Notes: a model not told the origin generated them from the letters alone. Positions 11,890 to 62,156 are shown, counted from the first letter of the stretch. The stretch is 64,000 nucleotides of DNA from Candidatus Melainabacteria bacterium (GCA_005110385.1 DUDT01000021.1:45420-109419), one strand, 5' to 3'. Translations and numbers: made by a program.

Positions 11890-12216
11890 ATGAGTAAACA
11901 AAATAATCATGAAAGTTATTTTGTTCTAGCCTGCCCAAGAGACGATGGCAGGCTCGCTGTTTTATGCAGGAATACTGGCCTGAATCAAGGGCCAGCACTG
12001 TGTGAAAGCAAAAAAGATGCGGTGCGTTTAAAAACCAAATTAGCTAACGATCCTCGCGGACTATCTAATGAAAATGCTGTCGCCATTATTAGAAGTCTTT
12101 ATGTTTACGAGTTGAAGCACGATGTAAAACCAGTCTGGCAGGAGGATTCACTATGGGCCTACCTACCAATAGAATTGGCCAAATGTGTAGAATCACAGGC
12201 TTTTTTTTCAAGATAA
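11890..12216 (+). CDS. Hypothetical protein (108 aa)
   Basis: ATG-start ORF with globular composition, divergent from the MNIO operon. No family recognised. Confidence 0.65.
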   Translation: MSKQNNHESYFVLACPRDDGRLAVLCRNTGLNQGPALCESKKDAVRLKTKLANDPRGLSNENAVAIIRSLYVYELKHDVKPVWQEDSLWAYLPIELAKCVESQAFFSR

Positions 12217-13703
12217 TTTTTAGTAGATTTAAAAATTGCGGCCGCCTCTTTTATATTACTGACCTCGATAATTTTTATTTTTAACTGTACTAAATTCGCT
12301 TTCAATTCTGGAGTTAAGGCTGGGATTATCGCTGTAGTGAAACCCAGCTTCTGAGCTTCTTTTAACCGCAGTTCTATATTACTAACTTGGCGAATTTCTC
12401 CACCTAGGCCTAGTTCACCCAGCGCAATAAAATCATTACAAGACTGCTCGCAAACTCCAATTTCTGCGTTTTCGTCAGGCTGCGCACAAACTCCAATTTC
12501 TGCGTTATCAATAGACGAATCAGGTTTTTCGAGTATTGAAAGTGCGATAGCCAAATCAGAACTTGGTTCTCTAATACTCAGCCCACCTGCAACATTTACA
12601 TAAACATCTTGCTTGCCCAAAGGTATTTTTAAATATTTTTCCATGATGGCTAATATCTGATGCAATCGGGTGAAATCTATACCGTTCGCCATGCGCCTAG
12701 GATTATGCTGCTCAGAATATATAACCAGTGACTGTACTTCCACTAATAAGGCCCTGCGTCCTTCTTTAATAACCGTGACTATGCCACCTGCACGTTGATT
12801 TAAAAAAATCTGTGAAGGATCGCTGACATCACTTAATCCATTTTCTCGCATTTCAAATACAGCTAATTCATCAGTGCTCCCAAAACGATTTTTAATCGAA
12901 CGTAGAATTCGCAAGGACTCATCTTTAATCATTTCGAACTGCAAGACAGTATCCACCATATGTTCTAAAATTTTCGGGCCAGCGATATCACCGTCTTTAT
13001 TTATATGACCGACTATAAAAATCGGCACATTGAAAGTCTTAGCGACTCTAGTAAGATTCGAGCAGCATTCTTTAATCTGCGACACATTACCTGGAACTGA
13101 ATCTAAATTAGGGTTATAAAGAGCTTGTATGCTATCAACTATGATTAAATTAGCTTCTGAGTTTTTAATCGCTTCAAGGATTTTTTCGAGGTTACTCTCT
13201 GTATAAACTAAAATATTCTCCTCATGTTGGGACTGCTCGCAAACTCCAATTTCTGGGTTTTCGTCGTCCTTATGATTTTTATTTAACCGCTTCGCTCGCA
13301 TCTTAAGCTGAGTAGAAGATTCTTCTGCGCTAACATAAAGCACTTTTAATTTTTTTAGACTGAAATAAAAAGCTAGCTGTAATAATAGTGTCGATTTACC
13401 GATACCCGGCTGACCGCCTATAAGATTTACGCTAGCGGGGACTATGCCACCACCAAGAACACGGTTAAATTCTTCTGAGCCTGTATTTAAACGAAGAACA
13501 GAGTCTTCTTTTATTTCACTTAAAAAGAGTAATTCTTCTTCTGAATTTACAAACAGACTATGTTTCACGCCTGTAGCTTTAGTTTTCGTTTTTACTAAAG
13601 CCTCTTTATCTAAACTACCCCAAGCTCCACAACTACTACACTGACCAAAGTAACCATTCGTCTCGTGGCCACAATTACGACAAACCCAGATGAATTTACT
13701 CAT
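12159..13703 (-). CDS. radA: DNA repair protein RadA/Sms carrying three in-frame repeat-derived inserts
   Basis: CxxC-CxxC, GGQPGIGKSTLLLQ Walker A, VDSIQ, KNRFG and Lon-like C-terminal domain. Confidence 0.97.
   Translation of the reverse strand: MSKFIWVCRNCGHETNGYFGQCSSCGAWGSLDKEALVKTKTKATGVKHSLFVNSEEELLFLSEIKEDSVLRLNTGSEEFNRVLGGGIVPASVNLIGGQPGIGKSTLLLQLAFYFSLKKLKVLYVSAEESSTQLKMRAKRLNKNHKDDENPEIGVCEQSQHEENILVYTESNLEKILEAIKNSEANLIIVDSIQALYNPNLDSVPGNVSQIKECCSNLTRVAKTFNVPIFIVGHINKDGDIAGPKILEHMVDTVLQFEMIKDESLRILRSIKNRFGSTDELAVFEMRENGLSDVSDPSQIFLNQRAGGIVTVIKEGRRALLVEVQSLVIYSEQHNPRRMANGIDFTRLHQILAIMEKYLKIPLGKQDVYVNVAGGLSIREPSSDLAIALSILEKPDSSIDNAEIGVCAQPDENAEIGVCEQSCNDFIALGELGLGGEIRQVSNIELRLKEAQKLGFTTAIIPALTPELKANLVQLKIKIIEVSNIKEAAAIFKSTKNYLEKKACDSTHLANSIGR
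12440..12506. repeat. Two tandem partial palindromic elements in frame in radA (NAEIGVCAQP-DENAEIGVCEQS)
   Basis: gactgctcgcaaactccaatttctgcgttttcgtc followed by ggctgcgcacaaactccaatttctgcgtt, both matching the left arm of copy A. Confidence 0.9.
13229..13276. repeat. Partial palindromic element in frame in radA (HKDDENPEIGVCEQS)
   Basis: gggactgctcgcaaactccaatttctgggttttcgtcgtccttatgat aligns ungapped with 665-712. Confidence 0.9.
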
Positions 13704-13718
13704 ATTTATGTAAGAGTA

Positions 13719-14939
13719 TCATGAAGTTCTTAATACCGACAATCTAAAATATTCAGAATATTCTGCCCCAAAGACTTTACCTGGTAGTATAAAGATCCCC
13801 TGCTCTATGAGTTCTTGAAAAAAATCTTCCACTCGGGACTGCTCGTAATCTTTATTTTCTGCGTTTTCATTAGCTAAAGAAGATAGTTTAGCGTTGGTTA
13901 AAGATTTTAAATTGTTTTTATTAGAGTTAAGTTTAGCAAGCATGCACAGCCCCCCAAAACTATCTCTAAGTAAATCTATAGAAGCCTCGCCCAAAAAGCT
14001 TTCCGAGGACTGGTCGCAAACTCGAGTATTCAAGCCCGCTTTAGTTAATTTTATTGCATAAGGATTTTCATAAATTTTATTTAACCCTCTTCTGATAAGT
14101 ATTTTCGAGTTTTCTAAAAGTACTTCTCTTTTATTTAAAGCTAAAACTGCGACTTTCTCACTTAAAATAGACGTTCTAAGAGAAAAATAACTTTTTTGTG
14201 CAAGGCAATCCTCAATTATTTTTTCGTCTTGCGTAGCTATCCAACCAACTCTCAATCCCTGTAAGCCATAGGACTTACTCACATCAGAAATACTTATCCC
14301 TTTTTCATAAATGCTTGCTACCGGAGGAGGCAAATTCAAGCAGATATCCCTGAAAACCTCGTCAGCAATTAAGTATCTGCCGTTAAGAATGTTTATTAGT
14401 TCTTTAAGTTCAAATTCGTTAAAACAGTAACCGCAGGGATTATTAGGATTATTAATCACCAAGGCTTTTACCTCAGGATTTTCACTAATTATTTTTTTTA
14501 AAGACTCTAAGTTAAGTTTAAAATCTTCCGCCCATTTAAAATCCCAATCAATCACTTTGCATCCCAGCCCTTCAGGTATCTTATAAAGAGAGGGATATAT
14601 GGGTTTCTGCACTATTAGGCTATCACCTAATGTAAATAAGCTTGAAAAGAGAAGGATAATAGCCTCAGCAGCTCCGCTGCTAGACAAGAACTTTAACTTG
14701 GGGTACTGCTTATAAATATTTTCAAGAGCTGAATAGAATTCTTCTAAACCATATTTCGAAGAATAATCTAGTTCTAGATTAACAAGGTCTTTTAATAAAA
14801 ATTCTTGGTCTTTTTCGTCATATAGGCTAAGCAGCTGATTAATAGTTAAGGGATTTAAGCAAGCAGTACTAAATGAAAAAAAGTAGTCCTTTTCGTAGGA
14901 GTTATATAAATCTTCTAGTTCAAAATTATTAAAAAGCAA
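13719..14939 (-). CDS. PLP-dependent aminotransferase class I/II with two repeat-derived inserts
   Basis: INNPNNPCG, IADEVF, SDVSKSYGLQGLRVGW (PLP Lys) and PGKVFG...FRLS motifs. Confidence 0.9.
   Translation of the reverse strand: MLFNNFELEDLYNSYEKDYFFSFSTACLNPLTINQLLSLYDEKDQEFLLKDLVNLELDYSSKYGLEEFYSALENIYKQYPKLKFLSSSGAAEAIILLFSSLFTLGDSLIVQKPIYPSLYKIPEGLGCKVIDWDFKWAEDFKLNLESLKKIISENPEVKALVINNPNNPCGYCFNEFELKELINILNGRYLIADEVFRDICLNLPPPVASIYEKGISISDVSKSYGLQGLRVGWIATQDEKIIEDCLAQKSYFSLRTSILSEKVAVLALNKREVLLENSKILIRRGLNKIYENPYAIKLTKAGLNTRVCDQSSESFLGEASIDLLRDSFGGLCMLAKLNSNKNNLKSLTNAKLSSLANENAENKDYEQSRVEDFFQELIEQGIFILPGKVFGAEYSEYFRLSVLRTS
13835..13871. repeat. Partial palindromic element in frame (NENAENKDYEQS)
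   Basis: 30/37 identity by manual alignment to the radA-type arm gacgaaaacgcagaaattggagtttgcgagcagtccc. Confidence 0.8.
14006..14037. repeat. Partial palindromic element, opposite arm, in frame (GLNTRVCDQS)
   Basis: aggactggtcgcaaactcgagtattcaagcc resembles gggacgattgccaaacgtacaagttcaaggc. Confidence 0.6.
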
Positions 14940-43785: not shown

Positions 43786-43821
43786 GGCACTGTTGCCAAA
43801 CTCCAATTTCTGCGTTTTCGT
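43786..43821. repeat. Partial palindromic element, intergenic between convergent genes
   Basis: ggcactgttgccaaactccaatttctgcgttttcgt. Confidence 0.85.
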
Positions 43822-43825
43822 TTCT

Positions 43826-57171: not shown

Positions 57172-58773
57172 TTGCCCGTTCCGCTAGAGCAAGTTACCAA
57201 CCAAGTAGTTAATAGTTTTAGCCTCGCAGAATTTCCCTCTTGGTTAATCTGCTTGAATGACCTGCACGTACCTTCTGGCTATCAAGTCTTGAACCATTTA
57301 TCCATGCTGGTTTTCGTAATAATTTATGGCTTTATTTTCTTTAAGACTGTATTTCCTGATTTTAATTTTCTTCGAATCACATCCTTTACAGAAAAACAAA
57401 CCCCGTCTCAGAATGATCTTTTTTGGTTAATCGGCATAGCTTTTATTTCTACGCTTATGTTACCAGCTAATTCTTCTGATATATTTGGCTATATCTCTTT
57501 TGGTGAGCAGATAGTTCACTATGATCAGAACCCCTATAGTGAAATTTTAGCGAATATAGAAAACTGTCGTTTAGATCCACTATTGGGAAATATGCGCTGG
57601 GAGTATAATCCATCACCATATGGCCCTATTTTTACTTTAATTTGTAAATTTTTTGTTAACCTATCTTGGAATAATCTATGGCTTAGCTTTTTTATTTTTA
57701 AGATATTTAATTTTATCTGTTATTTATTACTTATTTATATTTTTCATCATACCTTGAAATACTTTCCCACAGTACACTGCGGTCATTCGTCCTCCTCAGT
57801 CTTGAACTTGCACATTCAGCAACAGTGCCCAGCGGGAACCTCTGATTCTGCTCAAAAAATAATGATCTGGAACACAGATAGAGTGTGGTATCTCGTAGCT
57901 TTAAATCCACTATTAATAATTCAAGGTCTCTGGAATGGTCATAATGACCTGCTTTTAGCCATATTAGCCTTCGCCCCAGTATTTTTCACGGTAAAAGCTT
58001 TATCATCAGAGGAAAACGCAGAAACTGTAGATGGCAAGCAGCCCCATGTTCTATTTAAATTTCTTAAACCTAAATACCTTAGTTTTAATTTAGCTATCTG
58101 CCTGCTAATCCTTTCTGTTTTAATAAAATATATAACGATTATTTTAATACCCTTACTGTTACTGTGGATTTGGAAAAGAGAACGCTACATACCTTATTAC
58201 GGCTTAATTACAGGGATTTTCTGCTTCTATTTTTCTTCTCAGTATTTTAATTTATTTAACATCGATTATACAGAAATCTCTAATAATGCAACTCTCTTTC
58301 ATAAATCACTTTTTGATGTGATTAACACAGTATTTAAATTAATCACTAAGGCAGATCTACCTAAGTCTGCTGTTTTAATCTCACTTGCAGCCTATGCCTT
58401 ATTTTATGCTTATATATTTTTTAAACTCTTTTTCTCTAAGACAGGTAAGAAGCAGGATCATGAGGACGATGAAAACGCAAAAATAGGAGTTTCCGAGCAG
58501 TCCCTTGATATAAGCTTTCTTAAAAGCCTAAGCTTAGTTTATGCTGTTTTACTTTTAATAATTAGTCCTAAGTTTCATTCTTGGTATTTAATTTCCCTTT
58601 TACCTTTCGCAGCGATATCTCATCCTCGCTGGTGCTTTGCTTTAAGCCTCGGGCATTTACTGTCCATAACTTTTATAGATCAGGCTCATATTTTAAATTA
58701 TCTACTGATGACGGTGCTGCCGGTGGCGCAGACATATTTTTACGATTCTTACCTACGCAGAAACTATTTCTAA
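57172..58773 (+). CDS. GT-C-type membrane glycosyltransferase (MptB/DUF2029-like) with three repeat inserts. The frame is open upstream to 57034.
   Basis: SSDIFGY, NPY, PSPYGP, LNPLL...NGHNDL, IKY and WY motifs in a multi-TM protein. Divergent from the GtrB-like gene. Confidence 0.8.
   Translation: MPVPLEQVTNQVVNSFSLAEFPSWLICLNDLHVPSGYQVLNHLSMLVFVIIYGFIFFKTVFPDFNFLRITSFTEKQTPSQNDLFWLIGIAFISTLMLPANSSDIFGYISFGEQIVHYDQNPYSEILANIENCRLDPLLGNMRWEYNPSPYGPIFTLICKFFVNLSWNNLWLSFFIFKIFNFICYLLLIYIFHHTLKYFPTVHCGHSSSSVLNLHIQQQCPAGTSDSAQKIMIWNTDRVWYLVALNPLLIIQGLWNGHNDLLLAILAFAPVFFTVKALSSEENAETVDGKQPHVLFKFLKPKYLSFNLAICLLILSVLIKYITIILIPLLLLWIWKRERYIPYYGLITGIFCFYFSSQYFNLFNIDYTEISNNATLFHKSLFDVINTVFKLITKADLPKSAVLISLAAYALFYAYIFFKLFFSKTGKKQDHEDDENAKIGVSEQSLDISFLKSLSLVYAVLLLIISPKFHSWYLISLLPFAAISHPRWCFALSLGHLLSITFIDQAHILNYLLMTVLPVAQTYFYDSYLRRNYF
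57771..57829. repeat. Half palindromic element in frame (VHCGHSSSSVLNLHIQQQC)
   Basis: agtacactgcggtcattcgtcctcctcagtcttgaacttgcac matches the right half of copy A. Confidence 0.92.
58009..58045. repeat. Degenerate partial element in frame (EENAETVDGKQP)
   Basis: 30/37 identity to the radA-type arm by manual alignment. Confidence 0.7.
58454..58504. repeat. Half palindromic element in frame (DHEDDENAKIGVSEQS)
   Basis: aggatcatgaggacgatgaaaacgcaaaaataggagtttccgagcagtccc matches 62106-62156. Confidence 0.9.
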
Positions 58774-61978: not shown

Positions 61979-62024
61979 AAAAACGCAGAAATTGACGAAA
62001 ACGCAGAAATTGAAGTTTGGCAAC
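61979..62024. repeat. Two tandem partial element arms just before copy B
   Basis: aaaacgcagaaatt followed by gacgaaaacgcagaaattgaagtttggcaac. Confidence 0.85.
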
Positions 62025-62035
62025 TATCTCACGAA

Positions 62036-62156
62036 GGGACGATTGCCAAACGTACAAGTTCAAGGCTGAGGAGGACGAATGACCGCAGTGTACTCAAGGT
62101 ACATGAGGATCATGAGGACGACGAAAACGCAGAAATTGAAGTTTGGCAATCGTCCC
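62036..62156. repeat. Full 121-bp palindromic element, copy B
   Basis: Perfect 16-bp TIR gggacgattgccaaac / gtttggcaatcgtccc. Interior is 82/89 identical to copy A. Confidence 0.95.

Follow-up and report, generated by a model that had tools for sequence, protein, structure and literature searches.

The radA gene of an uncultured Candidatus Melainabacteria bacterium was found to contain three in-frame pieces of a 121-nucleotide (nt) repeat with terminal inverted repeats (TIRs). The gene lies in a 64,000-nt stretch of sequence DUDT01000021.1 (GCA_005110385.1; positions 45420 to 109419), referred to here as the window, and encodes a predicted protein of the RadA/Sms branch-migration helicase family (Table 1). 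These pieces are most probably passenger loops, derived in frame from the 121-nt element and filtered by selection. The evidence consists of the origin of the pieces, their position in loops, the frame and orientation of copies throughout the genome, the dynamics of arrays at the same loops in sister species and the selection acting on the host codons. Under this explanation, a non-autonomous element with 16-nt TIRs would have inserted into two surface loops of RadA; copies in one orientation and frame, at a loop able to take residues, would add a disordered excursion and survive, while copies in other orientations or frames would be lost through purifying selection. Inserts would form in-frame arrays that grow and shrink by direct-repeat recombination and internal deletion, with only whole-codon changes persisting. 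The three RadA pieces would be collapsed arrays, each keeping the left-end TIR and the 12 to 16 codons before it, and would be translated as passenger loops without a function of their own in a protein still under strong purifying selection.

Origin and position of the RadA inserts

Alignment with the solved RadA of Streptococcus pneumoniae (SpRadA) indicated that residues 143-158 and 398-421 of the window protein were without counterpart. Insert 1, NHKDDENPEIGVCEQS, was located between Walker A and Walker B, in the loop joining the helix that follows strand 2 to the strand that precedes Walker B. Inserts 2a and 2b, IDNAEIGVCAQP and DENAEIGVCEQS, were located in the Lon-like domain, with the pseudo-active-site helix on one side and the GELGLGGEIR motif on the other. 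All three pieces shared an exact 16-mer, CAAACTCCAATTTCTG, which had nine matches in the window at up to three mismatches (0.81 expected; none of 100 shuffles reached nine). The pieces aligned with the left end of the two full 121-nt copies in the window and were all read in one element frame, named O2; predicted peptides spanning the junctions with the flanks include ...RLNKNHKDDENPEIGVCEQSQHEEN... and ...PDSSIDNAEIGVCAQPDENAEIGVCEQSCNDF.... This comparison of sequences confirmed that the three blocks derive from the left end of a 121-nt mobile repeat. The pieces also generate an exact 25-nt direct repeat within radA (window positions 12442-12466 and 13231-13255, 789 nt or 263 codons apart); recombination between its two copies would remove, in frame, the greater part of the ATPase and Lon-like domains.

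The host protein had all the features of RadA/Sms, namely a C4 zinc finger, Walker A and B, KNRFG and a C-terminal Lon-like domain. Pfam searches detected AAA_25, a RecA-KaiC-DnaB-type ATPase, an N-terminal Zn ribbon and a C-terminal ChlI/Lon-type domain, and the closest solved structures were 5LKM and 8RXC of SpRadA (E of ~1e-100, aligned end to end), which also ranked highest when the predicted model was searched with Foldseek. The gene was single copy, with one match in the source genome. Walker A (GQPGIGKST) occupied residues 97-105, Walker B (LIIVDS) 186-191, KNRFG 271-275 and GELGLGGEIR 429-438. In a 27-sequence alignment of relatives, the zinc finger (C8, C11, C22 and C25), Walker A, DSIQ (Walker B), KNRFG and GELGL were invariant. 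The named relatives of this RadA were from metagenome-assembled genomes (MAGs) that bear the labels Cyanobacteria bacterium REEB446, Candidatus Caenarcanales and Vampirovibrionia. Between genus members, the ratio of nonsynonymous to synonymous divergence (dN/dS) of the host codons was 0.04-0.07 at a dS of 0.2-0.9 (455 ungapped codons); judged from these rates, radA is under strong purifying selection. At residues 380-381 (REPSSDLA), the position of the Lon catalytic Ser was a serine in this genus and an alanine in SpRadA; the Lon lysine position was still an arginine and, hence, the protease dyad was not restored.

An AlphaFold2 model, run on the 27-sequence alignment, had a mean predicted local distance difference test (pLDDT) score of 80.3. 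Scores below 50 were confined to residues 37-54 (the N-terminal linker), 145-157, 395-420 and 507-514 (the C terminus), all of which were coil next to blocks scoring above 90. Only five segments of the protein varied in length, and the two insert sites each fell in a different one of these; where a genus lacked the element, the site 1 loop had 5-10 residues and the site 2 segment 18-22. In a HMMER alignment, insert 1 mapped between I140 and D141 of SpRadA and insert 2 to the loop S377-E387, between A365 and R408, the residues that replace the Lon Ser and Lys (PMC5512693). By alignment position, the inserts did not overlap the working loops of SpRadA, namely RL1 (213-223), which binds DNA, the helix of KNRFG and, at 313-319, the Lon pore loops (PMC11612176). 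From the known topology of the RecA-type fold, the loop of insert 1 would be on the face of the sheet that points away from the nucleotide site. The model of RadA from a sister species, G006, which carries longer arrays, gave pLDDT scores below 50 for residues 145-207 (63 amino acids [aa]) and 445-541 (97 aa), with the core secondary structure unchanged. The first-pass annotation of the window had read three element-derived peptides in one frame of RadA, one between Walker A and B and two in tandem in the Lon-like domain, with catalytic motifs intact, and had proposed that surviving inserts occupy surface loops. The peptides and motifs were borne out by the alignments above, and the models support, for RadA, a predicted placement in surface loops away from the active sites. 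An unrelated insertion of ~30 residues was observed in the site 1 loop of a RadA from another genus (L009 in G022), with one in-frame TAG in the genome search.

The same two loops carried between 0 and 97 element-derived residues in sister species, always in frame. Site 1 contained long in-frame arrays in four genus members, comprising a partial unit and a full unit in G001, a longer partial unit and a full unit in G006, and an array with a second, different small element nested in its centre in G003 and G004; the loop had 23, 63, 73 and 96 residues in four species. A more distant genus member, G002, had a TIR-like trace at most, and a member of another genus, G018, had a decayed piece, NDENAENIAQQQ. 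The extra residues at site 2 numbered 0, 24 or 94. This site was filled only in the source genome (two short pieces) and in G006 (a short piece and two full units, 94 residues) and was empty in G001, G002, G003 and G004, where SDS was followed directly by SANDF. The 5′ junction of insert 2a, TCT joined to ATT(G/A)ATAAC, was common to G006, and insert 2b differed from the last unit of the G006 array by 1 nucleotide. At site 1, the source genome was one 120-nt period shorter than the G001 array, and the TIR that closed its piece was the one from the full unit of that array (GTTTGCGAGCAGTCCC, VCEQS) and not the one (AVHH) from the partial unit upstream. The piece is, therefore, a product of deletion or unequal recombination, and the possibility that it was ancestral and that the sisters gained a full copy beside it was rejected on the same grounds.

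At 42 orthologous sites compared between the source genome and G001, length differences were a multiple of three in 17 of 18 genic cases and in ~3 of 10 intergenic cases. The near restriction of genic length differences to multiples of three argues that the inserts are translated and speaks indirectly against removal of the inserts at the RNA level, which the first-pass annotation had named as a refutation. All of the RadA arrays, 45 to 351 nt in length and from five independently assembled MAGs, were open and in frame.

Orientation and frame of genic copies

A census by iterated nhmmer search of the 1.91-Mb source assembly, a MAG that is 88.5% complete, detected 243 hits, of which 58 were close to full length, 154 covered just the left end, 19 covered just the right end and 12 were of other kinds. 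Genes were called as open reading frames (ORFs) of at least 100 aa (1562 ORFs, 89.5% coding). Among the 122 hits fully inside genes, 120 were on the strand opposite to the gene and 2 were on the same strand. Every genic copy whose frame could be scored was in O2 (111 of 111, being 21 full copies, 88 left-end pieces and 2 others), as were 22 of 22 copies in 510 kb of the sister genome G001. The full element has two open frames, O2 and S3. Open end to end, O2 encodes a hydrophilic peptide of mixed charge (...TSSRLRRTNDRSVLKVHEDHEDDENAEIGVxQQS) with a grand average of hydropathicity (GRAVY) of −1.35; the S3 peptide is basic, with Cys and aromatic residues, and has a GRAVY of −0.41. A frame bias of the short pieces arising merely from stop codons in the other frames was rejected, as short left pieces were open in ~4 of 6 frames and O2 would be expected by chance in 24.7 of the 88. 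Exclusion of S3 as hydrophobic was only partly true, as its GRAVY is not strongly hydrophobic.

The bias had first been noticed within the window, where 8 of 9 intragenic pieces were reported to have the TIR on the 3′ side in the coding direction and orientation or frame was suggested to be selected or mechanistically biased. A recount agreed with this figure (three pieces in RadA, two in an aminotransferase and two in a membrane protein, plus weaker ones), the exception being a right-end piece in the membrane protein. The genome-wide bias was stronger than had been stated, and the suggestion is supported by a comparison of genic with intergenic copies.

Genes held 0.071 copies per kb, and the DNA between genes 0.405. 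Between co-directional genes, 21 copies were opposite and 14 co-directional (p = 0.31), a distribution that differed from the 120:2 within genes (Fisher p = 6e-9). As the bias was near-absolute in genes and absent between co-directional genes, we infer that it is mainly due to a filter on survival after insertion and not to an insertion preference. The genic copies occupied 92 host ORFs, ~6% of the total. Strong Pfam matches were obtained for all six of a random sample of these hosts (CinA, PyrK-type, FolE2, Ppx/GppA, UDP-GlcNAc 2-epimerase and an ABC transporter). RadA was one of seven host ORFs with at least three pieces, and its carriage of such inserts is ordinary within this genome.

An alternative is that the bias is built into insertion, through strand-specific integration coupled to transcription or replication or through a target motif tied to codon phase, with selection playing a minor part. 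Such a mechanism would account for the finding of every full genic copy (21 of 21) in O2 when S3 is open as well, for the excess of opposite-strand copies at gene 3′ ends (21:7) and among left pieces abutting a stop codon (17:1), for a ratio of ~42:21 in the pooled copies outside translated sequence and for a genic-to-intergenic ratio near the value expected if all O2 insertions survive. Against it stands the 21:14 distribution between co-directional genes, which are likely to be co-transcribed; furthermore, no common target motif was detected at the RadA junctions or in the flanks of the 58 full copies, and the stop-abutting pieces are explicable by element-borne TGA stops in other opposite-strand frames. 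We know of no integration machinery that senses codon phase, as a frame preference would require. An insertion bias is, on this balance, an unlikely main cause. Given the mild excess of ~2-3:1 at the 3′ ends of genes, a minor mechanistic contribution to orientation outside translated sequence is possible, although the TGA codons can account for part of this excess. In several of the abutted genes, the stop codon was seemingly supplied by the CATGAGG stretch of the element itself, and a left-end piece at window positions 43789-43822 was located exactly between two convergent stop codons.

Several points weigh against a selective filter as the complete explanation. The ORF calls were crude. The S3 frame is also fully open and not strongly hydrophobic, yet all 21 full genic copies were in O2; a filter strict enough to exclude all S3 copies is plausible. 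The genic-to-intergenic ratio of 122:81 was close to that for random insertion with every O2 insertion surviving, which implies more tolerance than expected if only loops accept inserts. Left-end pieces were in excess over right-end pieces between genes (44:7) as well as in genes (86:6) and, hence, selection on the peptide cannot be the whole story. For RadA itself, the source genome is a MAG and an assembly collapse of tandem units at site 2 is possible.

Table 1. Positions of radA, of element copies and of other element-bearing genes in the window
Feature	Position	Strand	Remarks
radA (RadA/Sms branch-migration helicase)	12159-13703	minus	ORF, 514 aa
Insert 1, NHKDDENPEIGVCEQS	13230-13277	minus	RadA residues 143-158; nhmmer model positions 1-58; frame O2
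Insert 2a, IDNAEIGVCAQP	12477-12512	minus	RadA residues 398-409; nhmmer model positions 3-32; frame O2
Insert 2b, DENAEIGVCEQS	12441-12476	minus	RadA residues 410-421; nhmmer model positions 1-36; frame O2; tandem with 2a
Full reference copy, 121 nt	665-785	plus	Intergenic; perfect 16-nt TIR GAGACCGCTGCACAAC / GTTGTGCAGCGGTCTC
Second full copy	62036-62156	minus	Intergenic; left-end piece next in element-forward direction at 61993-62025
Aminotransferase, neighbour of radA	13719-14939	minus	Two decayed pieces
Degenerate left-end piece in aminotransferase, ANENAENKDYEQS	13836-13874	minus	Common to three sister species
Second piece in aminotransferase	14007-14030	minus	
Membrane protein, 533 aa	57172-58773	plus	Three pieces
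Right-end piece in membrane protein	57769-57837	plus	Frame S3; sole same-strand intragenic piece in window
Further piece in membrane protein	58009-58044		TIR on 3′ side
Left-end piece in membrane protein, DHEDDENAKIGVSEQS	58456-58503	plus	Frame O2

Copying and maintenance of the element

[quoted passage not shown] As single-stranded DNA, it was predicted to fold into a terminal stem of 16-17 bp and a small central hairpin (z = −4.8). Rfam searches yielded no family matches anywhere in the window, and a described RNA family was rejected on this basis. No consistent direct repeat (target-site duplication) or target motif was detected in the flanks of the 58 full copies or at the RadA junctions, the clean pairs of empty and filled sites being too few and too diverged for a target-site duplication to be read from them. 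No left-end and right-end pair 0.3-4 kb apart, as sought for an autonomous partner, was present in the assembly, which is weak evidence given the 88.5% completeness of the MAG; insertion sequences are often missing from MAGs.

The element has been mobile recently, as judged from presence/absence polymorphism at orthologous sites: RadA site 2 was filled in two genus members and empty in four, and full copies in the source genome corresponded to empty or remnant sites in G001 at orthologous sites 20, 40, 49 and 70. At the second aminotransferase site, three sister species held an internally deleted copy that kept both TIRs. A second small element of ~78 nt (GTAATTTCCAGCGATGCCGAG...AAGCTTGATTTATCAAGCTTAC) was observed within the 121-nt element, nested at the GTAC palindrome in the centre of the latter, both at RadA site 1 of L006 (G003) and L008 (G004) and at orthologous sites 137, 179, 121 and 175 of the source genome and G001. 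It appears to target the 121-nt element and, being present or absent between species at orthologous copies, to be mobile.

The layout of copies was asymmetric. Twenty of the 58 full copies had a left-end piece 6-21 nt beyond them in the element-forward direction, on the same strand and never in the reverse order. TIR sequences varied from copy to copy, and the adjoining left-end piece usually had the rare TIR variant of its full neighbour (identity of 0.78 versus 0.58 for random pairs, p < 0.0002). The same arrangement, a partial unit beside a full unit, was displayed by the RadA arrays of G001 and G006. This layout fits either local partial duplication or copying from a fixed left end with a variable start. 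Under the latter, the element would be something other than a MITE that moves by cut and paste; copies would be made from a left end that is fixed, by one-ended or rolling-circle DNA copying, or by target-primed copying of a multimeric template, and the retained end would be under constraint at the nucleotide level. Truncated left ends standing alone would be expected from such copying, together with copies of unit length and longer arrangements in which partial and full units adjoin, and the RadA pieces and sister arrays would be direct products of copying plus later deletion. This proposal is unlikely.

The left-end pieces could, alternatively, have been retained because they act as DNA or RNA, for example as a site bound by protein or as an RNA motif, or their peptides could have been co-opted by RadA. 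Divergence rates bear on this in both directions. In orthologous genic pieces, element codons differed by 15.3, 11.8 and 10.9% at positions 1, 2 and 3, as compared with 5.7, 3.1 and 19.1% in the host flanks. The even divergence across positions, with positions 1 and 2 changing as fast as position 3, indicates no constraint on the element peptides at the amino-acid level. The third positions themselves were, however, more conserved than those of the host, not only genome-wide but also in RadA, where 1 of 45 element third positions had changed versus 34% in host codons (P = 1.7e-7). A function would also be in keeping with the conservation of copy-specific TIRs across four species, the left-end excess between genes and the ~1% divergence of some orthologous intergenic full copies. 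The last contrast is weakened by the alignable intergenic DNA being only 7.5% diverged. Low third-position divergence could result from gene conversion, constraint at the DNA level or re-insertion; gene conversion among the ~240 copies could give the same pattern as a function, although the conserved copy-specific TIRs argue against conversion of whole elements. Pieces have, moreover, been lost or have decayed in individual species (for example, at site 2 in four of the six members of the genus and, in G001, at site B of the aminotransferase), array lengths vary freely and there was no Rfam match in the window. A maintained function is, thus, quite improbable.

That the inserts are absent from the mature protein, through removal from the mRNA, decay of radA as a pseudogene or an assembly artefact, is extremely unlikely: the incompleteness of the MAG can be cited in its favour, but it is opposed by the open, in-frame arrays of five independent MAGs, the whole-codon length changes at 17 of 18 genic sites, the low dN/dS with intact motifs, the solo pieces, which lack a partner TIR and so could form no hairpin to mark an excision, and the fact that, to our knowledge, bacteria do not excise such short mRNA segments and rejoin the ends.

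Significance and comparison with known systems

In-frame passenger loops filtered by selection would constitute a natural experiment, the second after that of Rickettsia and a larger one, in the capacity of essential enzymes to accommodate random disordered sequence. Here, a ring helicase appears to tolerate from 16 to 97 extra residues at two loops, differing among sister species, and sites permissive for insertion can be mapped directly from RadA and ~90 other conserved proteins. Comparison of genic with intergenic copies allows selection to be told apart from insertion bias, which studies of the Rickettsia elements had not settled, and the 25-nt internal repeats make radA a potential recombination hazard. 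The left-end excess and low synonymous divergence point to a further aspect of element copying or maintenance and raise the interest of the element family.

The host protein has its domains in the order of those of SpRadA (5LKM and 8RXC; PMC5512693, PMC11612176), namely a C4 zinc finger, a RecA/DnaB-type ATPase that bears Walker A/B and KNRFG, and a Lon-like domain lacking the Ser-Lys dyad, with ~40% identity in a full-length match. It differs by the addition of 16 residues at I140/D141 and of 24 in the loop S377-E387, with up to 63 and 97 in the sister species.

No account of an element of this kind in Melainabacteria or Vampirovibrionia emerged from the literature search. The closest parallel is provided by the Rickettsia palindromic elements (RPEs), that is, RPE-1 and its relatives (Ogata 2000 Science 290:347; 2002 Genome Res 12:808), as summarised in PMC10969869 and PMC2229807. 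In these summaries, RPEs are likewise short (105-150 nt) and non-autonomous, have TIRs and a stem-loop fold, are fused through an open frame within many conserved housekeeping genes and encode a conserved hydrophilic peptide judged to be compatible with the host fold; translation and retained activity are described there as demonstrated experimentally for the host gmk. Protein-coding palindromic repeats are also known from Wolbachia (Ogata, Suhre and Claverie 2005, cited in PMC2229807), and in-frame fusions have been described for the Correia (107 bp), ERIC and YPAL elements (PMC2229807). As these families are presented in that review, they are mostly intergenic with few fusions, unlike the present element, and near-absolute use of a single frame over ~100 intragenic copies is not among the properties it reports for them.

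By its sequence features, the 121-nt element behaves like an RPE, being inserted in frame in conserved genes, in one frame and with a hydrophilic predicted peptide. The likeness is one of behaviour, between Vampirovibrionia here and Alphaproteobacteria there, and common descent is not claimed, nor is a relationship in sequence expected. The present element occupies more hosts than the 19 ORFs that the summaries give as first reported in R. conorii, is represented mostly by solo left-end pieces of 30-60 nt and not by full elements, forms arrays that expand and contract at one loop between species and has TIRs that vary from copy to copy. It is clear that a behaviour known from Rickettsia is now found in a new lineage, the Vampirovibrionia, in an uncultured non-photosynthetic relative of the cyanobacteria.

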